Shown here: one piece after another, positions 320 through 45,863 of the stretch | Numbering within the stretch: the first letter of the stretch is position 1 | Layout: each line of letters starts with the position of its first letter | Source of the DNA: a virus | Lineage: Duplodnaviria > Caudoviricetes | DNA length: 53,162 nt | Strand: one strand, 5' to 3' | IMG/VR virus record: IMGVR_UViG_3300024323_000009 | Coordinates: 1-53,162 of that record | The notes under the pieces: generated by a model | The model's input: the letters and a program-made list of their open reading frames with translations, nothing else | The model's database searches: none | What the model was told of the DNA's origin: nothing | Made by a program: the position numbers and the translations under genes

Positions 320-1009
320 ATGAGTAATGAAGCAAAACCAGTAGTCGCGCCAGTAGTGGCGGACGTTCCCGCATACAATACCCGTGGTGATCGCAACGGT
401 ATCGCCTTTGACCTTGGCAAGCGTGAGACAGAACGCGCTAAGAAGGGCGAAGATACGGTAACGTATTGGGGGTTTGACATTGGGCAGTATCTCAATGCCA
501 GTGTCCCTGGCGAACGTCCCCTGCCACAACTTGCGGCCAATGCCACTGACGCGCAGAAGAAAGCACATGCGGAGATTATTGCGGCGAACATTCAGTCACG
601 CCGTGAGTATGCAATCGCGCAGCTTGATACGCTGTTAGGGAGTGACAGTGACGGCAAGTGTATCCTCTTAGATATGGTTGAATCTAAGATGAACGGCTCA
701 CTACTTGCCGCACAAAAAGACAAGGGCAAGGACAACTATGACATGACTACCAAGCTGCAACGCGCATTCGCTTGGTTCAATAACCTTAGCGTTGCCCGGG
801 CTGTCCAAAAATCCCCGATGGACATTGCCAAGGACGAAATGGTAACGGCGATTCAGGACTCCGCAAAAGCGTTAGCGGCTGGCACCATTGATGCCGCTGC
901 GAATGCTCTTGCGGTGCAATCGGCCATTGCGAGCTATCAGAAGCGCGTCGCAGAACTGTCCGCTGCAATGACGGCGCAAGCACTCGCCGATGCCGGTATC
1001 ACGCTGTAA
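320..1009 (+). CDS. Hypothetical early protein, alanine-rich helical C-terminus
   Basis: 229-aa ORF with its own promoter and terminator. No family recognised. Confidence 0.8.
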   Translation: MSNEAKPVVAPVVADVPAYNTRGDRNGIAFDLGKRETERAKKGEDTVTYWGFDIGQYLNASVPGERPLPQLAANATDAQKKAHAEIIAANIQSRREYAIAQLDTLLGSDSDGKCILLDMVESKMNGSLLAAQKDKGKDNYDMTTKLQRAFAWFNNLSVARAVQKSPMDIAKDEMVTAIQDSAKALAAGTIDAAANALAVQSAIASYQKRVAELSAAMTAQALADAGITL

Positions 1010-1033
1010 GCCTCACTAACAGCCACTACAAAT

Positions 1034-1064
1034 AGCCCCTTGGTTCACAGCCAAGGGGTTTTTT
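1034..1064 (+). terminator. Rho-independent terminator
   Basis: AGCCCCTTGG...CCAAGGGGTT hairpin followed by a T run, just after the stop at 1009. Confidence 0.85.
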
Positions 1065-1093
1065 GTCACTACTCCCAATCGCTTCCGGCGTTG

Positions 1094-1272
1094 TCAGGTT
1101 ACCTACTTCCCCATGCTTGCTAGTAATCCCTATGCGCTAGCTAGCAGACCCATACGTGAGCTAGTAGAAAGCTAGTGTTGCTTTGCGATAAATCGTAAAT
1201 CCTTTTCAGCCAGCATATCCGCCAGTGTTGGCATTTACCCTTCAGGTTACCTATTTGCCCCATCCTGCTAGT
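1094..1272. repeat. Imperfect 31-bp direct repeat (1094-1124 and 1242-1272) in a long non-coding region
   Basis: TCAGGTTACCTACTTCCCCATGCTTGCTAGT vs TCAGGTTACCTATTTGCCCCATCCTGCTAGT. Confidence 0.75.
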
Positions 1273-1984
1273 CCTACTCCGATCACTCTCCTAGCGAGTC
1301 GCTATCTCCTGCTAGCTTGCTCAAAAACTAGGAGTAGTAAGTAGTGGCATCTGACTAAGATCATAATGGTAAGTGTTTAAGTTTAAAAAGACCCCCCACA
1401 CCGTGTATATTAGAATATATAATTTATATACATTATAGTTGTTTACTGGCGTTTAACCCGTAAATTCTCGCAAACACTTCACGGGCACCCCTTAAACACT
1501 CCGCTCGTTCAATGGCGTTTATCGGAGACCTACAACGACACCCTTGCTACTCGACACCTAGTGCTAGCTAGCAATCCTTATCGTCTTTGTAGTGACACAA
1601 GCGCAACTAAAGACTAGCACTATTCCGACGTGTATAAATAAATACAGCTAACATCACACTCGCGTTTAATTGTTGCGCTTATCTTACGAGTTGACTAATG
1701 ACATTTACTACTCATTACTAACAAGCATCACGCTGTTACTAATAACGTCGCTAGTTAGCGGCAGATAATTAAACGCCGTTTATCCCACCGTGCTAGTCAT
1801 CACGCCAGTTACTACTCCACCGCTAGTTATTACCATAGCTAATCATGTGCTATTACTAGGGAGGGGTAGCCCCCAGAAACATTTTTGCTGGCCCGAACCA
1901 TCATACTCTCTCGAAACGCTAATTTTCGAGTATTCGAGGTTCTTAATGATAGCAACTAGCTACTCGATACTATTACCCAGATGT

Positions 1985-2000
1985 TGGCATAAGAAATGCT
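1985..2000 (+). promoter_or_regulatory. sigma54 promoter B, head of the packaging/structural arm
   Basis: TGGCATAAGAAATGCT with GG-N10-GC. With flanks it is a near-identical 20-mer to promoter D. Confidence 0.85.
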
Positions 2001-2476: not shown

Positions 2477-2614
2477 ATGGACCTTACTAATCCGAAAACG
2501 ATTTTGTGCATCATCGCGGTAATACTCGCAGTGGTAGGCATCGTGAAACCGCAGTGGCCATGTGTGGCGGTAGCTGTGTTGCTAGTGGCGATAGCGACGT
2601 TGATTAAGTCGTAG
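2477..2614 (+). CDS. 45-aa two-TM membrane protein (holin-like candidate), not in the ORF track
   Basis: Translated by hand: MDLTNPKTILCIIAVILAVVGIVKPQWPCVAVAVLLVAIATLIKS. It fills the gap between neighbouring ORFs. Confidence 0.65.
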   Translation: MDLTNPKTILCIIAVILAVVGIVKPQWPCVAVAVLLVAIATLIKS

Positions 2615-2618
2615 TAGT

Positions 2619-3056
2619 ATGGGCTTCGACAGCAGACAGATACTAGAGCTAGGCAAGCAAGGGTTAAATGCCGAGGAGATAGCTGCCGCTTTGGGGTATG
2701 ATGTAGAGCTAGTCACTACTGTCTTGACGAAGGGGGCGGAAGTTCCGGCCCTAGCTGATACTACTCTCGAAAAGCCTAAAGCTAGAGGGATGATGTTTGA
2801 TGATAGTATGGAGCAACTCGCAGTTGCGACGGTGAAGGATATTCTATTAGATACAGAAGTGAAAGCACAAACACGTCTTAATGCGGCTCGAACTGTCATC
2901 GAGGAACGCAAGGGCCTACTAGAACCCAAAGTCGCTACTAACGTCACTTTCAATATCATGGACTTTAACGAACGGTTGCAGCAGATGCGCCGACGGCGGG
3001 AGGAATTGGAGAGGGTGATAGATGTGCAGGGAGATACTAAATTGGTAGCTGCATGA
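2619..3056 (+). CDS. Putative terminase small subunit
   Basis: N-terminal HTH-like segment (GLNAEEIAAALGYD), helical middle and coiled-coil tail. Lies upstream of TerL. Confidence 0.6.
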   Translation: MGFDSRQILELGKQGLNAEEIAAALGYDVELVTTVLTKGAEVPALADTTLEKPKARGMMFDDSMEQLAVATVKDILLDTEVKAQTRLNAARTVIEERKGLLEPKVATNVTFNIMDFNERLQQMRRRREELERVIDVQGDTKLVAA

Positions 3057-3349
3057 ACACAAGAACATTCATCAAATCACTGCTAGTCGGCGCTATCGCA
3101 CCTTCGGTATTTTTGCCGAAAGCTAGTGACTCGTTTAAGTGGAAACGCACGGCTAGTGGAATCTATGTTGTTAGTGACGTTGACAAATTTCAAAGACTTC
3201 CTTATTACTTAACCAAGGTTGAATTAGAGCATTTTCCCAGCTGGAATAGTTTTGAAATGTTGTATGGAACCAATATCTGGAAACCAGATATGGGTGATAC
3301 TAAAAGAGCAATTACTATTCGCTCCGATTTTTACGCTTCTGGATTCTAG
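3053..3349 (+). CDS. Tat-like leader fused to a paralogue of the major capsid N-terminus
   Basis: MNTRTFIKSLLVGAIAP leader. Segment DVDKFQRLPYY...KRAIT aligns ungapped to MCP DKDRFQKLPFY...MRAVT at 28/47 identities by hand count. Confidence 0.75.
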   Translation: MNTRTFIKSLLVGAIAPSVFLPKASDSFKWKRTASGIYVVSDVDKFQRLPYYLTKVELEHFPSWNSFEMLYGTNIWKPDMGDTKRAITIRSDFYASGF

Positions 3350-3351
3350 TT

Positions 3352-4959
3352 GTGGACTCCAACACCTCCATCGTCCCCTTCGATTTCAAAGACCCGATAG
3401 ATATGCTACTAGCGATAGATGATATGCTACTTCGAGGCTCCGCGAATGGTGGCATTGACCTCTATAAGTGGCAAATGGAAGTAATGAAAGACTTCGCACA
3501 GGAGAGTAGCGACCGAGAGCCATTCCTAGCAGTAGCTCGAACCTGTAATGGTGCCGGTAAGGACCATATGCTAATTGCGCCCTGTGCTACATGGTTGTGC
3601 TGTCACTATGCCTACGCACAAGTTGTGATAACGTCGAAGTCCGGCCCACAGCTAGACAAGCAGACGAACACCCGCATACAACAGATATGCGAAGCATTTA
3701 ATGCTAAGTGCGGCGAAGAGATATGGAAGATCAACTACCGGCACTATGAGAACCTTCGCACTCGCTCTACTATTGAAATGTTTGTTACAGATGAGGCTGG
3801 ACGCGCCGAAGGATGGCACCCTAAAGTTCCGGGAGGCAAGCAGGCGATATTTACTAGCGAAGCGAAGTCCATCGAAGAAGAGATATTCCAAGCCCTCGCT
3901 AGATGCACCGGAACTACTCACCGACTCGACTGTTCTACACCGGGGTTACCTATGGGGCATTTCTTTAACAGATGCACTAGTGGCAACTGGCGCAAGTACC
4001 ATGTGACGGCGTTCGACTGTCCCCATATCTCACCGGCGGAGATAGCTAGCGTTGCAGAGATGTATGGTGAAGGCTCTCCGACGTATAAGTCCATGATCCT
4101 CGCAGAGTTCTCCACTACCGACGACTTAGTAGTAATTCCGTATTTTCGTGTAGTAGCAGCGATGTCGGGGAACGGGAAGATTCCGCATACTCGGGAAGTG
4201 CATAACACCGGCGGTCTAGACCTATCGGCGGGTGGAGACGAGACTGTGCTAGCGGTTAGGAATGGTAACAAACTACTCTCTATATATGGATGGCGATATG
4301 ATGATACCAGTAGAACAGTCGAACATGTCGAAAAACTGCTCAAGGAGAATGGGTTACAAGACCCTAAAACTACAATCTGGGCTGACGCCGGAGGACTTGG
4401 GAAACCAATCATTGATAATCTACGTTCGAGAGGATGGTACAATATCAAGTATGTTGTTAATCAAGGCTCCCCCAACGACAAGCGAGTCTATCTCAACCGT
4501 GGAACAGAAATGTACTTCACCCTCAACCGATGGCTAGAAAATGGCGAGATCATACTACTCCCAGATGAACGATTACGACGACAACTATCCACTCGTTACT
4601 ATGTTGCGACCGATAACAGGTATCGTCTTGAATCAAAGCTACAAGCGAGGGCCAAAGGGCATCCGTCCCCGGACAGAGCTGATGCCGTTGTATTGGCATT
4701 CTCGAACTACCGAACTCAATTTCGAGATGGCGTACCAGATGATCGGCTCCCGCTACCACCACGAGTTATACAGTCACCTCCTACGGGGGGAGACTTCACT
4801 CTGAAAGGTCATGCACAGGGAGGGGATGATGTGCAACGATACCTCGATCAGAAGTATGGTTCATGGTCAGCGAACGGCAAAGATGATAGCTATTTGAGGG
4901 AGCAGATTGCGGAGTTGAATGCGAAGAGGAAAGCAGTAACCACTAATGAAAATAACTGA
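3352..4959 (+). CDS. terL: Terminase large subunit
   Basis: Walker A-like RTCNGAGKD, STPG coupling motif, and RNase H-fold nuclease motifs GLDLSAGGDETV, DAGGLG and SPDRADA. Confidence 0.9.
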   Translation: MDSNTSIVPFDFKDPIDMLLAIDDMLLRGSANGGIDLYKWQMEVMKDFAQESSDREPFLAVARTCNGAGKDHMLIAPCATWLCCHYAYAQVVITSKSGPQLDKQTNTRIQQICEAFNAKCGEEIWKINYRHYENLRTRSTIEMFVTDEAGRAEGWHPKVPGGKQAIFTSEAKSIEEEIFQALARCTGTTHRLDCSTPGLPMGHFFNRCTSGNWRKYHVTAFDCPHISPAEIASVAEMYGEGSPTYKSMILAEFSTTDDLVVIPYFRVVAAMSGNGKIPHTREVHNTGGLDLSAGGDETVLAVRNGNKLLSIYGWRYDDTSRTVEHVEKLLKENGLQDPKTTIWADAGGLGKPIIDNLRSRGWYNIKYVVNQGSPNDKRVYLNRGTEMYFTLNRWLENGEIILLPDERLRRQLSTRYYVATDNRYRLESKLQARAKGHPSPDRADAVVLAFSNYRTQFRDGVPDDRLPLPPRVIQSPPTGGDFTLKGHAQGGDDVQRYLDQKYGSWSANGKDDSYLREQIAELNAKRKAVTTNENN

Positions 4960-5260
4960 CACTATTCCAGCGGCGACCGAAGGGAGTAGAGATACAAGCG
5001 GCTATGCAGTTGAGAGCACTCTTTTCTTAGCACGTAGAGTTCTTGACGATCATGCGTTAGTGTTCAAGCAGTTCTATGAAGAGAGCTTGAAAGAGCAGGG
5101 TGGACAAATGAGCGAGCTATCACGTAGGTATGCAGCGCAATATAACAGCTTAGTAGATTTACGCAAGAAACTAAATCAAGAGACTGCATCGCAGATGGTA
5201 AGATGGGATGGACCAGAAGCAACACAGAAAATTTACTTTAGTACAACAACAAACAACTGA
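4946..5260 (+). CDS. Hypothetical protein
   Basis: 104-aa ORF overlapping the terL stop. Confidence 0.65.
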   Translation: MKITDTIPAATEGSRDTSGYAVESTLFLARRVLDDHALVFKQFYEESLKEQGGQMSELSRRYAAQYNSLVDLRKKLNQETASQMVRWDGPEATQKIYFSTTTNN

Positions 5261-8135: not shown

Positions 8136-8416
8136 AACAGCTACCACCACAACTAGCTACTCCTGAGAACATTGAACTCGTAGCTCTCCACGAAAAGTGG
8201 CTCCAATCACCAGTAGCAGCGAAGGTGCGACAATTACTAGACCACTGGGTTACTAACTACACTAACTTTGCTGCTACTGGTTCAGTTACTTCTGAAATAT
8301 CAGCCGAATCTGTTCGCATACGCGCGGCACAACTTCACACACTCCTAAAACTCCGAGACACACTATATGACACTGAACGCTTCATCACAGAGATTGCTAG
8401 ACCCCACACCAGTTGA
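8132..8416 (+). CDS. Hypothetical protein
   Basis: 94-aa helical ORF between portal and scaffold. Confidence 0.6.
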   Translation: MKQLPPQLATPENIELVALHEKWLQSPVAAKVRQLLDHWVTNYTNFAATGSVTSEISAESVRIRAAQLHTLLKLRDTLYDTERFITEIARPHTS

Positions 8417-9635
8417 GGGCGGGAATGGTGGCACTACCACTACTACGGAGCCTCCGGCTTCTGCTACCACACTCACTCCTGACCAACAGAAGATAGCCTC
8501 GGCAGTTGAGAAGGTAGCAGCAGCGGAGCCATCACCAGCGCCACGAACTAGCACTACGCCTAAGATCACCAAGCCACTAGTACCCACAGGTGTTCCAGAC
8601 GATGTGTTGAAGATCAACTTTGGGATGGATGATAATGATGTTTTGTCCACACTTGAACAGGAGCAAGAGGTTCCAGTTAAGAAGGAGGGTGAGAAGAAAG
8701 TAGAGCCGAAGGTTGAGGCTAAAGTCGAGCCAAAGAAAGATGAAAAAGCTCCCACCGAAGATGGTATCATTCGGCCCAAAGCCGCGCAACAGCGCCAACA
8801 GCAACAGCAACAGCAACCCGACTCGCGTGACTATAACGGATTCGATGCTGAGACAGTTGCCGCGTTGAAGAGGATGCCGAACGAGTCGTATAACGTAGTG
8901 CATAAGCAGTTGCGAGAGTTCGAGCAGTTGAAACAACAGAAGGTGGGTAGTTACTTGCAGCATCCACAAGCTTATACTTTGAGTCCCGAGTATGCTCAAG
9001 CGTCGGCAATGGTAGGACAAGCTGAATACGAGATACAGCATTACGAACAGCAATTACTAAATATCCGCGCCGGTAAAGACTGGACTGTCCTCACTGGCTT
9101 CGATCAGAAGACTGGTCAACCAATAGTATCTCCGGCGCAGAAAGCTAGTGACGAGTCGGATATACGAGTAGCGAACACCCTCTCTCAACTCTCGCAACAA
9201 GCCGAACAGTTCCGGCGTCAACGCTCTGATATAACCGCGAACTTCCAGAAGCGTATTGAAGCCGAGAACCAGATGATTAACCAAGTCAGGGCGCAACGGT
9301 TCGGATGGGTAGCTGACCCCAAAACTCTTGATGATACTGTCGAGGTTGTGATTAAGGGTACTCCTACTCCCATTCCTATCAAGCAGGTCATCGCTGACTT
9401 TAAGAACTTATTCCCTCCTCACCATCACGCATCACCTATCCTCGATGTTGCTGCTGATATGTTCGTAGCTATGCAGATCAAAGAACAGGAGAACCGCGAA
9501 CTACGAAGTAAGACCGAGACTCAATCGCGGTTGCGAGAAGACTCGGACGCTGCTGAGATTAACGTCGAGACTGCTAGTAACGGAGCACCTAATAAGGGTG
9601 AGACTGTGTTTGATATGGCAGGGTTGGAGGACTAG
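8367..9635 (+). CDS. Putative capsid scaffolding protein
   Basis: Low-complexity N-terminus plus coiled coils, immediately upstream of the capsid gene. Confidence 0.65.
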   Translation: MTLNASSQRLLDPTPVEGGNGGTTTTTEPPASATTLTPDQQKIASAVEKVAAAEPSPAPRTSTTPKITKPLVPTGVPDDVLKINFGMDDNDVLSTLEQEQEVPVKKEGEKKVEPKVEAKVEPKKDEKAPTEDGIIRPKAAQQRQQQQQQQPDSRDYNGFDAETVAALKRMPNESYNVVHKQLREFEQLKQQKVGSYLQHPQAYTLSPEYAQASAMVGQAEYEIQHYEQQLLNIRAGKDWTVLTGFDQKTGQPIVSPAQKASDESDIRVANTLSQLSQQAEQFRRQRSDITANFQKRIEAENQMINQVRAQRFGWVADPKTLDDTVEVVIKGTPTPIPIKQVIADFKNLFPPHHHASPILDVAADMFVAMQIKEQENRELRSKTETQSRLREDSDAAEINVETASNGAPNKGETVFDMAGLED

Positions 9636-9655: not shown

Positions 9656-9671
9656 TGGCACGAATCTTGCT
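9656..9671 (+). promoter_or_regulatory. sigma54 promoter C, major capsid gene
   Basis: TGGCACGAATCTTGCT is a perfect match to TGGCACG-N4-TTGCW. Intergenic, 145 nt upstream of the capsid ATG. Confidence 0.92.
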
Positions 9672-9816: not shown

Positions 9817-11097
9817 ATGCCAAATTACTATGAGCAGCCTGCTTCCTTCGCTAATGCGATTGTGGAAGATAAGGACCGCTTCCAGAAACTTCCCTTCTAT
9901 CTCGTCAAAAACGAACTCGAAGTGTTCCCACGCTGGAATATCTTCGATCAACTCTATGGTAACATCTCATGGGAACCCAACATGGGTAACACCATGCGAG
10001 CAGTTACGCCGCAGAAAAGCCCAGTAGCTAACTCATTCGCGTTCCCTAACAATATCGACGTTCTCCCTAATAAGAACGTCTATCAGGTTACGGAGTCGAG
10101 CGAAGACGCGAGAGTAAAGGCGCAGCGGTTCGAGTCACAGCAATTCTCGTTTGTTCCCTACTTCACGTCGTTCTGGCGCGATCACTTACAGTTTGCGAAC
10201 CGTGATATTGCGACGCAGATTCAGAACTATAACAATCAGTTCATACGAACGAATATGCTGGCGAAGAGCAACTATGCTTATATCGCCGGTAAGGGACTCA
10301 TCGGGCAAGCTCCTACTGCGGACCTTGGCACTGTTACTACGGATGCGAATGGTAACACGTTGACAGCAGCCGCAAACTCTAAGACCTCCGCATGGTTCGC
10401 TGCACAAGCCGCACTCATTAAGAACAATCTCTCGCTCCGGGATGTGTATAACGCGATGCTCAGCCATACGGAAGACCTCGCTGCTCCACCGTTCGATGGC
10501 GTGAAGAATATGCCTACTGACAATGAAGGACTGAAAGGGAAGTATGTCATTGTTGGTAGCACAGAAGCGTGGGCAGCATTTCCCTACGACCCTGATACTA
10601 ATCTCCTCAAGAGCTTGGAACAGAATATCCTGTTCAAAGACTTCACTGGGCTGTTGTTCGGCAAGGTGACGTGGAAGTTTGACCGCTATCCTCTGCGGTT
10701 CGATGCTACTGGCGCATTCATTGCTCCCGAAGCGTATGATGACACGGTGAAGAAGTGCATTCCTAATCCGAACTACACTTCGTTGCTCACTGCACCCTAC
10801 GAAATCGCATGGATGCTCGGACAAGACGCCTGCAAGACGATCAAAGTCGGACCTCCACCGAAAGAGTTCGCTGCTACTAGCATGGCTGCGAAGAAGTTCT
10901 ACTCTCTCAAGTGGAATGGTGAGATTCAGCTTACCGATCAAGTGTTGATTACCTACGCGGATGGCACTACTGACCTCAACACCTACGGCACTCAGTTGAA
11001 GTTCATCTCGCAATGCACTCACGGCTACCTTACTGGTGAGCCTCGCTATGCGTTCCCCATTCTGTTCAAGCGCGCTCGTCCGGCGTTGGCAGTCTAA
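9817..11097 (+). CDS. Major capsid protein
   Basis: 426 aa after the scaffold, with a dedicated promoter. Call rests on position and size. Confidence 0.8.
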   Translation: MPNYYEQPASFANAIVEDKDRFQKLPFYLVKNELEVFPRWNIFDQLYGNISWEPNMGNTMRAVTPQKSPVANSFAFPNNIDVLPNKNVYQVTESSEDARVKAQRFESQQFSFVPYFTSFWRDHLQFANRDIATQIQNYNNQFIRTNMLAKSNYAYIAGKGLIGQAPTADLGTVTTDANGNTLTAAANSKTSAWFAAQAALIKNNLSLRDVYNAMLSHTEDLAAPPFDGVKNMPTDNEGLKGKYVIVGSTEAWAAFPYDPDTNLLKSLEQNILFKDFTGLLFGKVTWKFDRYPLRFDATGAFIAPEAYDDTVKKCIPNPNYTSLLTAPYEIAWMLGQDACKTIKVGPPPKEFAATSMAAKKFYSLKWNGEIQLTDQVLITYADGTTDLNTYGTQLKFISQCTHGYLTGEPRYAFPILFKRARPALAV

Positions 11098-12091: not shown

Positions 12092-13798
12092 ATGAAACGA
12101 TTTTTCTTGTTTCCATTATTAGTAACACTATCCACTAGTGCTCAGTTAGGACCAACGCCGATTATTAGTGGAGGCAACACTGCTCCAAAAGTTCTTGCTA
12201 GAGGCATAGTGTATCGCAACGGTTCTGCTATCAATAACTTCGAGTCTGCTTTTAGTGGTTCTAGCGTTGGAGATTCATTTATTCTTGGGCCGGGAGTCTT
12301 CTGCATGACTAATCAAATAGTTATGAAGAACAACCAAAGTATCATAGGATATGACCCTATTCAGACAGCAGTGATATTTGCTGGTGGGCAGTATTCGTCG
12401 AACAATAATGGACTTTGGACTGGTATTGAGTTAGCCACTAATGTGTATCTAGCTAACTTTAGTATTTATGCCACTAATTGGCAAGCAAACTTTTTCGCTG
12501 CTTGTATTGGTGGTAGCACAGGCGGGAAGGGTTTTAGCAATGCAGTTGTTCAGAATGTGTGGATGTATGGAGATACTGATAACTTTTATGTGGATAACAC
12601 ATTCCATGCTGATGGAACGTTAAATAACTGTCGGTTCTATTCGCAGTGGGACACATTAGCAGTCAATACGAGTGGACACCCCGGAAGTATTATTCGGGTT
12701 AATAATAGCACGTTCAATAATCTTGGTCCTAGTGTAAGTAGCCCATCGTCACCTGCTGTTTGCCTTAGAAATAGTAATGCGCGAACTGCCTTAATTTTGA
12801 ATAACTGTGACTTTACTTCTAGTCAGTATATAGGTAGTGGGGGTAATATGCGCTTAATGCACTGTAGAATAAACACTACGAATCAACTTGCTTTCTATAA
12901 CAATATAACTCTGTTGCCATTATACTTTGAAGACGTTAACATTATACCTCTACAGATAGACGCTTCTGCTAATAACAATATGTCTAGTTATGTGCAGATA
13001 AATAACTCGTCTAGTAACTTCGTTGCTCAATCACTAGGAGGAATAGGAACGCCGTCTTACGGTTGGAATATCGAAGACACAAATAGATTTCCACAGGTAG
13101 GACTAGGACAGATTTACTTTGATAACACTACAAAGGGACTACGTATTTTTAATGGTATAGAATGGCAAGCCTTGACTCCTGCTATGGATACTAATAAAGC
13201 TGTATTGAGCGGACGTGGAGATGCTTATGATGGAGTGTATAAACAGGATAGCTACGTGGTTGATGCTTTGCCGGGTGTATCGTGGACTAATCGAGATGGT
13301 GTTTTCTTTATGTTCACAACGAATGCGAACGCAGATGGTGTAGTTGGTATTAGTGCTACTAAAAGCATGATTAGTGGGGCTGAGATAGATTTAGGAGGTG
13401 TGAATATAGATAACACACATTACGCCCTTGCACCAAAAGGCTCATGGGCAAATACACCTACTACACTTACTTTTGCAGATAAGACTACTTTAAGTAATGC
13501 AGTATTAGTAATAGGAACAGCTTATACTAATCAGACAGGAAAAGTGCAAACAATTTGTGGGCTGAACGGGACGGCGACAGTTGCCGCAGTTAGTGGAAAA
13601 TGCACAATACAGTTAGAATTATCTGACTGCTTCACAAATGAAGTCTTTTCTATGCCAACCACAGCGAGTAGTATTACTGGAACTTACACGAATGCGTTAC
13701 CAACTATTATGGTGCCATCAGGCAGTAGATATTTATTTAAGAACACTAGCACTGGCACAGGAAACTCCACAGCACTCGCAAATGGTCAACGTCTCTAA
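12092..13798 (+). CDS. Signal-peptide-bearing beta-helix (pectate-lyase-like) protein, possible tailspike/depolymerase
   Basis: MKRFFLFPLLVTLSTSAQ leader, GDSFILGPGVF beta-helix-cap-like motif, and Asn-rich repeats (NNCRF, NNSTF, NNCDF). Confidence 0.6.
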   Translation: MKRFFLFPLLVTLSTSAQLGPTPIISGGNTAPKVLARGIVYRNGSAINNFESAFSGSSVGDSFILGPGVFCMTNQIVMKNNQSIIGYDPIQTAVIFAGGQYSSNNNGLWTGIELATNVYLANFSIYATNWQANFFAACIGGSTGGKGFSNAVVQNVWMYGDTDNFYVDNTFHADGTLNNCRFYSQWDTLAVNTSGHPGSIIRVNNSTFNNLGPSVSSPSSPAVCLRNSNARTALILNNCDFTSSQYIGSGGNMRLMHCRINTTNQLAFYNNITLLPLYFEDVNIIPLQIDASANNNMSSYVQINNSSSNFVAQSLGGIGTPSYGWNIEDTNRFPQVGLGQIYFDNTTKGLRIFNGIEWQALTPAMDTNKAVLSGRGDAYDGVYKQDSYVVDALPGVSWTNRDGVFFMFTTNANADGVVGISATKSMISGAEIDLGGVNIDNTHYALAPKGSWANTPTTLTFADKTTLSNAVLVIGTAYTNQTGKVQTICGLNGTATVAAVSGKCTIQLELSDCFTNEVFSMPTTASSITGTYTNALPTIMVPSGSRYLFKNTSTGTGNSTALANGQRL

Positions 13799-39525: not shown

Positions 39526-39759
39526 TCAATCTCCCTCCTTCGGTTGTAGTCCTAGCAAGCGTTGCTCTAGTCCCTGTAGCGCCGCATTCACTCCACGAAT
39601 ACTATACAGCGCACTTCTCACTGGCACTAGGTGTTCCGTTGCGTTAAGACCACGCTTATCACCATCTAGTATCACGCGAGGTAATGCTTGTAGGTGAGCT
39701 TCAGCACTCAATATGCCATCACGCGCCTTTGTTAGTAGTTGGATTTTACTCTCTGGCAT
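39526..39759 (-). CDS. Hypothetical protein
   Basis: 77-aa ORF in the operon. Confidence 0.55.
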   Translation of the reverse strand: MPESKIQLLTKARDGILSAEAHLQALPRVILDGDKRGLNATEHLVPVRSALYSIRGVNAALQGLEQRLLGLQPKEGD

Positions 39760-41512: not shown

Positions 41513-41528
41513 AGCATTTTCTATGCCA
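41513..41528 (-). promoter_or_regulatory. sigma54 promoter D, upstream of the Sak4-like/SSB/polymerase genes
   Basis: Minus strand TGGCATAGAAAATGCT in a 71-bp intergenic gap. Confidence 0.85.
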
Positions 41529-45847: not shown

Positions 45848-45863
45848 AGCAGGAATCGTGCCA
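45848..45863 (-). promoter_or_regulatory. sigma54 promoter E
   Basis: Minus strand TGGCACGATTCCTGCT, intergenic, 73 nt upstream of the ATG at 45774. Confidence 0.88.

Follow-up and report, generated by a model that had tools for sequence, protein, structure and literature searches.

We analyzed a virus record from soil metagenomes, IMGVR_UViG_3300024323_000009 (Duplodnaviria; Caudoviricetes), which is complete at 53,162 bp (CheckV estimate 100%) and is referred to below, over its full length, as the window. Our subject is a small gene on its plus strand at 3053..3349 (98 codons plus a stop in the list of open reading frames, ORFs), which encodes a leader, a linker and a copy of the N-terminal arm (N-arm) of the phage's own major capsid protein; we call it the mini-gene and its product the mini-protein. 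The original prediction, made from the nucleotide sequence alone, had located this gene between terS and terL, and an intact ORF indeed lies tightly packed between a terS-like and a terL-like gene. Its ATG shares the sequence ATGA with the stop codon of the 145-aa gene that precedes it, and the downstream 535-aa gene begins 2 nt past its stop. Within its own genome, the mini-gene matches only itself and the capsid gene.

Three parts can be distinguished in the mini-gene, all on the plus strand. Residues 1-24 (3053..3124) form the leader, delimited by alignment with 68 leaders that carry a twin arginine (RR); it has the layout of a twin-arginine translocation (Tat) signal, with TR standing for RR, a hydrophobic core and an LPKA end. 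Family alignments define a basic linker at residues 25-38 (3125..3166) with a conserved tryptophan, W30, that is almost invariant in them; model confidence is low across this linker. The capsid-arm copy, placed by BLASTP and by a hidden Markov model (HMM) of the capsid protein, occupies residues 39-98 (3167..3346), of which residues 39-88 (nt 3167-3316) are the securely homologous portion. A second soil-metagenome run, from a different study, yielded contigs with 0 differences over 2600-3167 and 3185-3511, so the mini-gene is not an assembly artefact. The contigs of this run and of another, possibly the source of the record, carry no variant and are therefore uninformative on selection, and no RNA dataset was found among the sequencing runs listed.

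The likeness to the capsid protein is extensive. BLASTP aligned mini-protein residues 39-98 with capsid residues 15-74 without gaps (31/60 identical, 42/60 positive; E 1e-20), which upholds the ungapped match to the capsid N-terminus noted originally and extends it beyond its 47-residue core, where 28 of 47 residues are identical. The mini-protein was also recovered when the capsid protein was used as the query of an exhaustive phmmer search of 1.84 billion proteins (E 2.9e-11), and its body matches positions 13-64 of the capsid HMM (independent E-value, iE, 6e-14). Like the real arm, it has the acidic residues, the motif L-P-[FY]-Y and the motif W-x-P-x-M-G.

The manner in which the core has diverged points to a maintained protein. 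Identity to the capsid gene at codon positions 1, 2 and 3 of the core is 66%, 72% and 36%, respectively; the proportion of nonsynonymous differences (pN) is 0.277, while that of synonymous differences (pS) is close to 1 and saturated. We ran 20,000 neutral simulations tuned to the third-position distance of the core. They preserved a mean of 4.8 identical residues out of 47 and a maximum of 16, with none at 28, and 2,292 of the 20,000 simulated sequences remained free of stops. Because synonymous sites have reached saturation and yet 28 of the 47 residues in the core persist, a retention that none of the neutral runs reached, the mini-gene is a real gene, an old copy under purifying selection. 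The suggestion that its intact frame reflected selection is thus supported by both pN/pS and the simulations. Divergence proved non-neutral and intact relatives were found (see below), whereas a decaying recombination scar had been expected to show neutral divergence and no intact relatives.

The protein from which this segment is known is encoded at 9817..11097 (plus strand; 426 aa). It has no sequence match in Pfam, PHROGs, GenBank phage records or the PDB, and 130 homologues were found in the exhaustive search of the same 1.84 billion proteins. With 80 homologues as alignment, AlphaFold produced a model with a predicted local distance difference test score (pLDDT) of 86 and a predicted template modelling score (pTM) of 0.84. 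Foldseek matched this model with probability 1.00 to the capsids of N4, DEV, Pan3 and Moo19 first and to that of HK97 further down (best E 9e-10), the nearest solved folds being those of N4 (9e99), DEV (9bgn) and Pan3 (9vye). On the strength of the modelled structure, we identify this product as an HK97-fold major capsid protein. The model begins with coil over residues 1-32, followed by helices at 33-40 and 42-46, strands at 49-52, 59-66 and 92-106, and the spine helix at 116-150. The segment resembling the mini-gene (residues 15-74; 9859..10038, plus strand; from the alignment and the model) spans the N-arm, strand 49-52 and the first E-loop strand, 59-66. Since the capsid model places these elements within residues 15-74, the copied part consists of the N-arm and the first E-loop strand, and ends there. 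The mini-protein does not contain a complete HK97 fold; only capsid residues 15-74 are represented, and its own model has a pTM of 0.24.

A word-based search with the mini-protein alone returned only itself, and Pfam, PHROGs and NCBIfam searches gave no match. GenBank phage records likewise held no match to the mini-protein, to the capsid protein or to P0131, one of the relatives described here. Relatives surfaced among the weak matches of the capsid search, as three proteins of 83-92 aa that begin with a leader of about 40 residues, continue with the capsid arm and all have a true twin arginine. Profile searches extended these to 10 proteins and later to 69 (of 749 candidates), which together with P0128 make 70 small metagenomic proteins that share the leader. 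The mini-protein matches the family profile at E 1.7e-25, a value obtained with a profile that included the mini-protein itself. At 98 aa, it falls within the family's range of about 80-130 aa. Family leaders have a median identity of 71% to their consensus and a common layout, in which M-N-R-R-x-F-L is followed by a core of about 12-14 residues that is mildly hydrophobic, rich in Gly and Ala and contains a proline, and then by basic residues.

We classed the bodies behind these leaders with an HMM of 80 capsid proteins at a threshold of iE <= 0.01. Thirty of the 70 bodies matched: 17 contain the N-arm, one the N-arm plus a middle piece, three a middle piece and nine a C-terminal piece. Middle pieces correspond to the second E-loop strand or the spine helix, and C-terminal pieces to the strands around a conserved G-P-P-P; the other 40 bodies match nothing in this capsid family. 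The fusion to which the original prediction had drawn attention therefore recurs in relatives, in a family of 70 of which 18 bear the N-arm piece. These sequences constitute a large, unnamed family in which a leader of twin-arginine type precedes a short segment taken from an HK97-fold capsid protein. We found no description of such leader-capsid-piece genes in the open-access full-text literature.

Seventeen other members carry the same N-arm segment as the mini-protein, and N-arm bodies mostly end directly after the W-x-P-N-M-G..R-x-V motif. Column by column, conservation in the 18 N-arm bodies follows that in the 80 capsid proteins (Spearman 0.81, p 6e-13, 50 columns), a correlation inflated by the fact that bodies were classed by their own match to the capsid HMM. 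The L-P at capsid positions 25-26 is retained in 17 of 18 N-arm bodies. The body of the mini-protein is among the most capsid-like, its iE of 6e-14 falling inside the range of the top seven (2e-17 to 6e-14). Taken as a sequence, the mini-gene is very probably a real, selected member of this family.

Two further features of the bodies were observed. None of the 30 mapped bodies (among proteins P0119-P0196) derives from HMM positions 160-305, the A domain in the model and the least conserved part of the capsid protein, which may be a detection bias. In P0142, P0150 and P0176, two capsid pieces stand in an order other than that of the capsid protein (in P0142, for example, HMM 104-124 precedes 40-71). 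Judging by these alignments, bodies can be shuffled mosaics.

The leader of the mini-gene is the most divergent of those compared. The original prediction was right that TR replaces RR, as 68 of 69 homologous leaders carry RR at this position and the mini-gene is the sole exception; a single base change, AGA to ACA, would convert RR to TR. Its leader is 35% identical to the consensus of the other 68, with R4, F6, P22, A24 and W30 in common. Its best 13-residue core scores 2.08 on the Kyte-Doolittle scale, compared with 1.47-2.01 in nine relatives, and is thus the most hydrophobic of the 10. The hydrophobic stretch as a whole covers some 13-14 residues, includes a proline and has basic residues on either side, those after the core being K23, K29, K31 and R32. 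Because it is short, contains proline and is flanked by basic residues, this stretch reads as a signal-peptide core more than as a stable membrane anchor, which argues against the membrane-tethered anchor proposed originally.

Searches with models of known leaders gave few leads. The mini-protein had no match to TIGR01409 or PF10518 at E <= 10, and the Rieske/PetC-type anchor model TM_PetC (PF25471) weakly matched two of 20 family members (E 0.02). Among the named Protein Atlas clusters closest to the mini-protein are one for a periplasmic hydrogenase small subunit (0.82) and TAT_signal (0.78), both below 0.9 and to be taken as leads only. The description of the leader as Tat-like thus stands in part: it is very probably homologous to leaders with a genuine RR, but the RR has been lost here and no Tat model reaches its cut-off. 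For the family, the RR leaders are likely to serve in targeting to the Tat receptor. For the mini-gene, true Tat export seems doubtful, because RR became TR and the core became more hydrophobic; membrane docking or Sec routing would be as likely.

Two other proteins also bear leaders of related appearance. Among ORFs of at least 50 aa, the only near-Tat leaders in the window are the T-R of the mini-gene and K-R-F-F-L at 12092, where a 568-aa protein (12092-13798, plus strand), encoded after the capsid gene, starts with M-K-R-F-F-L and a hydrophobic stretch. Its gene is AT-rich (GC 0.40; GC at third codon positions, GC3, 0.32), like the mini-gene body. A related phage, L006 (introduced below), encodes a virion-module protein of at least 134 aa (12502-12903, plus strand), which continues past the edge of the locus and has a textbook twin-arginine leader that ends in A-F-A. 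We considered the 568-aa protein as its counterpart and rejected this match (best BLASTP E 0.91).

The mini-gene is not a fixed feature of related phages. In L003, the closest relative found, the capsid protein is 73% identical to that of the window and the record is 45% complete; its terS and terL stand 76 nt apart, and the mini-gene is absent. L006, a 49.9-kb contig binned with a Deltaproteobacteria metagenome-assembled genome (MAG), encodes a capsid protein 48% identical, and its terS-terL slot (4011-5010, plus strand) holds three unrelated ORFs (139, 110 and 83 aa) and no mini-gene. The family profile, run against L003, L006 and a third MAG, matched capsid N-termini only. Because it is absent from both relatives whose terS-terL region can be read, the mini-gene is accessory, and the slot is a variable insertion site.

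Scans of viral contigs with the mini-protein, P0119, P0128 and the leader alignment found nothing. One metagenome scan yielded a single 4.3-kb locus, L005, with a 95-aa member within 887-1521 (plus strand) whose first 34 printed residues are identical to P0145. The body of this member comprises the capsid C-terminal strands around G-P-P-P (HMM 312-363, iE 2e-06). Its gene directly follows a lipoprotein-like gene of 116 aa, lies near a 77-aa membrane-protein gene and stands two genes upstream of the portal gene, so the position of such mini-genes is not fixed.

Composition sets the mini-gene body apart from its surroundings. Its GC is 0.36 and its GC3 0.32, compared with a GC3 of 0.57 in the homologous capsid segment and 0.49 in the flanking terS/terL genes, and only 0.19% of 186-nt windows of the genome are equally AT-rich. 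Since the body is such a strong outlier, a simple local duplication of the phage's own capsid gene seems doubtful, and composition points to import. The affinities of the encoded residues are nevertheless closest to home. Among 88 aligned rows, the nearest to the body is its own capsid protein (51%), followed by P0002 (43%) and the L003 capsid protein (39%), with the best other mini-protein at 37%. At 11 columns where the own and L003 capsid proteins differ, the body sides with its own in seven and with L003 in none, and two own-capsid states of the body are absent from seven other capsid proteins. Together, these comparisons hint weakly that the body follows the capsid of its own phage. A quick tree placed the body within its own capsid subclade (SH-aLRT, the Shimodaira-Hasegawa-like approximate likelihood ratio test, 97). 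It had suggested several independent captures of the capsid arm, an idea that we dropped because the approximately unbiased (AU) test gives it no backing.

The genes on either side are putative packaging genes. The upstream gene (2619..3056, plus strand; 145 aa) is labelled terS-like from its position upstream of the terminase gene, where L003 and L006 have genes as well; its match to HTH_38 is weak and below the cut-off (E 0.026). The downstream gene (3352..4959, plus strand; 535 aa, GTG start) is labelled terL-like from its nearest Atlas clusters, annotated 'terminase family' (score 0.99, 233/256 features), and from a weak match to phrog_5902 (3.7e-07), with no sequence match in Pfam or the PDB. 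For the portal protein, a PDB sequence search gave nothing usable. A scaffold-like protein is encoded at 8367-9635. Directly upstream of the terS-like gene lies a 45-aa ORF (2477-2614, plus strand); it has two hydrophobic stretches and resembles a holin in its size and shape.

Transcription of the mini-gene would follow that of its neighbours. Boxes of the sigma-54 type (-24/-12; TGGCAYR-N5-TGCT) occur six times in the window against 0.09 expected, as pattern matches at 141-156, 1985-2000, 9656-9671, 39703-39718 (minus strand), 41513-41528 and 45848-45863. The closest such plus-strand box upstream of terS, the mini-gene and terL is that at 1985..2000, and the next one on this strand, at 9656-9671, lies ahead of the capsid gene. 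No terminator-like site was found on the plus strand between 2418 and 5700. Given the box at 1985-2000, the separate box of the capsid gene and this lack of a terminator-like site, we infer co-transcription of the mini-gene with the genes for terminase and portal, separately from the capsid gene.

We then considered what such a protein might do. That the body mimics the capsid N-arm is, from its sequence, probable. Residues kept by the real arm are also kept in the body, so the two would be expected to share binding partners. Tailed phages assemble their heads in the cytoplasm. In P22, acidic residues of the coat N-arm dock the C-terminal helices of the scaffold, and on maturation this arm extends into a neighbouring subunit (PMC9965877). 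The mini-protein body could bind to an adjacent coat subunit, to the scaffold or to a host protein that recognizes the arm. The leader would deliver this mimic to the cytoplasmic membrane or to the Tat receptor, whether or not export follows. The protein could then act as a decoy for a capsid-sensing defence, or interfere with coat proteins.

We rank such a role in conflict above one in core assembly because the gene is optional, lies in a variable slot and looks imported, and because family members carry several regions of the coat. That the mini-gene serves conflict is a possibility that we rate somewhat below even. The reading as a whole, in which a selected accessory family member mimics the capsid N-arm and acts in conflict, is the one that we favour, tentatively and at a little short of an even chance. 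A more specific version is a long shot: the family might be a phage counter-defence device, in which a leader-borne coat piece captures a host sensor or surplus coat protein and drags it to the Tat receptor. The captured protein would be held there or exported as a hitchhiker, away from the site of head building, and the RR-less version of the mini-gene would be a non-exported, membrane-docked trap.

Several observations weigh against the reading that we favour. The conflict role is based on distribution and composition only, and the correlation in conservation that accompanies the mimicry is inflated, as noted. In a model built with 20 relatives, the mini-protein has a leader helix at 3-19 and three short helices and is not compact (pLDDT 63, pTM 0.24). 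A tree uniting nine mini-protein bodies has a log-likelihood 11.6 higher and is not rejected by the AU test (p 0.634), which bears on the origin of the body. Other points concern the leader. The motif N-T-R-T-F-I-K lacks the consecutive arginines of the Tat motif, and the mini-gene leader scores 9.6 bits against an HMM built from the other 68, where the next lowest leader scores 31.3 and the median is 65.1. Even with RR, no family member reaches the TIGR01409 cut-off of 16.7 bits (the best scores 14.0, and four of 20 match at E <= 1), and none of 20 members matches PF10518. The leader ends in L-P-K-A in the mini-gene and mostly in L-P-S-A in its relatives, hence in P-x-A and not A-x-A, and proline at -3 is unusual for a signal-peptidase site. 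The window itself encodes no TatA (the control was positive in 13 of 14 genomes), and none of its ORFs of at least 50 aa starts with a true RR leader. A predicted complex of mini-protein residues 31-98 with the capsid protein (score 0.00, mark 0.32), run without controls, is evidence neither way.

Among other explanations, the one that survives best makes the mini-protein a procapsid assembly factor, whose N-arm copy would bind scaffold or coat and nucleate, anchor or limit head assembly at the membrane. There is precedent in T4, in which head assembly starts at the membrane. The placement of the mini-gene agrees with such a role, as it belongs to the terS-terL-portal unit behind the 1985-2000 box and is set apart from the box of the capsid gene; so do the acidic residues and the two motifs, L-P-[FY]-Y and W-x-P-x-M-G, that it has in common with the real arm, considering that in P22 acidic N-arm residues dock the scaffold (PMC9965877). 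We nonetheless regard it as unlikely, since both readable relatives build the same type of capsid (48-73% identical) without a mini-gene and other members carry C-terminal strands or E-loop/spine-helix pieces, which a single assembly step would not need. Its composition is also foreign, and the hydrophobic core is short for an anchor. The procapsid-assembly role raised by the original prediction, at least as that of a core factor, is at odds with a gene that occupies a variable slot and is missing from both these relatives.

Distinctly unlikely, in our view, is a job in the envelope, by which an exported or membrane-inserted peptide would, for example, couple the timing of lysis to the pool of free coat protein or exclude superinfecting phages, its likeness to the capsid being indirect. 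This would leave unexplained why the bodies keep the positions conserved in the capsid arm; moreover, no lysis gene was identified beside the mini-gene, and the RR has been lost. Some of the surroundings would suit it, including the export-signal layout of the leader, the two-helix membrane ORF of 45 aa upstream (2477-2614), several signal-peptide proteins in the same arm and, at L005, the lipoprotein-like and small membrane-protein genes that precede the homologous mini-gene. Finally, it is improbable that the mini-gene is an imported cassette in the course of losing function, with a decaying leader, an open frame and no present role: its leader is the only one of 69 without RR (one base suffices) and the lowest scoring, and the gene is absent from two relatives with readable context, AT-rich and foreign-looking, but its body is as capsid-like as those of the best relatives, its frame is intact with start and stop coupled, codon positions 1 and 2 are far better kept than 3, the leader retains its basic N-region, hydrophobic core and conserved Pro, Ala and Trp, and an identical sequence occurs in a second soil sample.

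If the mini-protein and its relatives are indeed mimics, they would represent a novel class of small accessory proteins derived from components of the virion, with a bearing on how bacteria sense capsids and on the sabotage of assembly among phages and mobile elements. The mini-gene is in this respect a natural variant, in which the capsid-like body has been kept and the twin arginine lost, so a comparison with an RR relative could separate the role of the body from that of the leader.

Parts of this arrangement have counterparts in known systems. Tat signal peptides (TIGR01409, PF10518 and the uncleaved Rieske/PetC type, PF25471) resemble the family leaders in layout only. The mini-gene has TR and not RR, members fall below the curated cut-offs, and the leaders end in P-S-A or P-K-A instead of A-x-A. 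The family leader is also far better conserved than its cargo, which is not known of ordinary signal peptides. As for the body, it shares homology with the N-arm and the first E-loop strand in the HK97-fold capsid protein of the same phage, the N-arm being known, for example, from residues 2-30 of P22 gp5 (PMC9965877). Unlike such a capsid protein, the mini-protein is a lone piece of 60 residues behind a leader, and it cannot be a shell subunit because the P and A domains are absent.

The nearest precedents for the proposed action are accessory proteins of mobile elements. CpmB of SaPI1 is a satellite protein that competes with the helper phage scaffold for one of the sites on the capsid protein (PMC5644958). 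Like the mini-protein it is small and accessory, and occupying a contact site of head assembly is the mechanism that we infer for the mini-protein too; CpmB differs in that it is a scaffold mimic, comes from a satellite and has no export-type leader, whereas the mini-protein is a copy of a coat piece encoded by the phage itself. Pfam and PHROGs searches revealed no sequence relation between the two. Tail-assembly-inhibition (Tai) systems of prophages, phage-inducible chromosomal islands and P4-like satellites block the assembly of virion parts in conflicts between such elements (PMC11364771). Being optional genes carried by mobile elements, they come closest among published systems to a role in interference, a resemblance of logic only: they block tails and not heads, are not fragments of the target protein and have no Tat-type leader. 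Among Tat signals, the HK97 N-arm, CpmB and Tai, none attaches a piece of the phage's own coat protein to a leader of export type.

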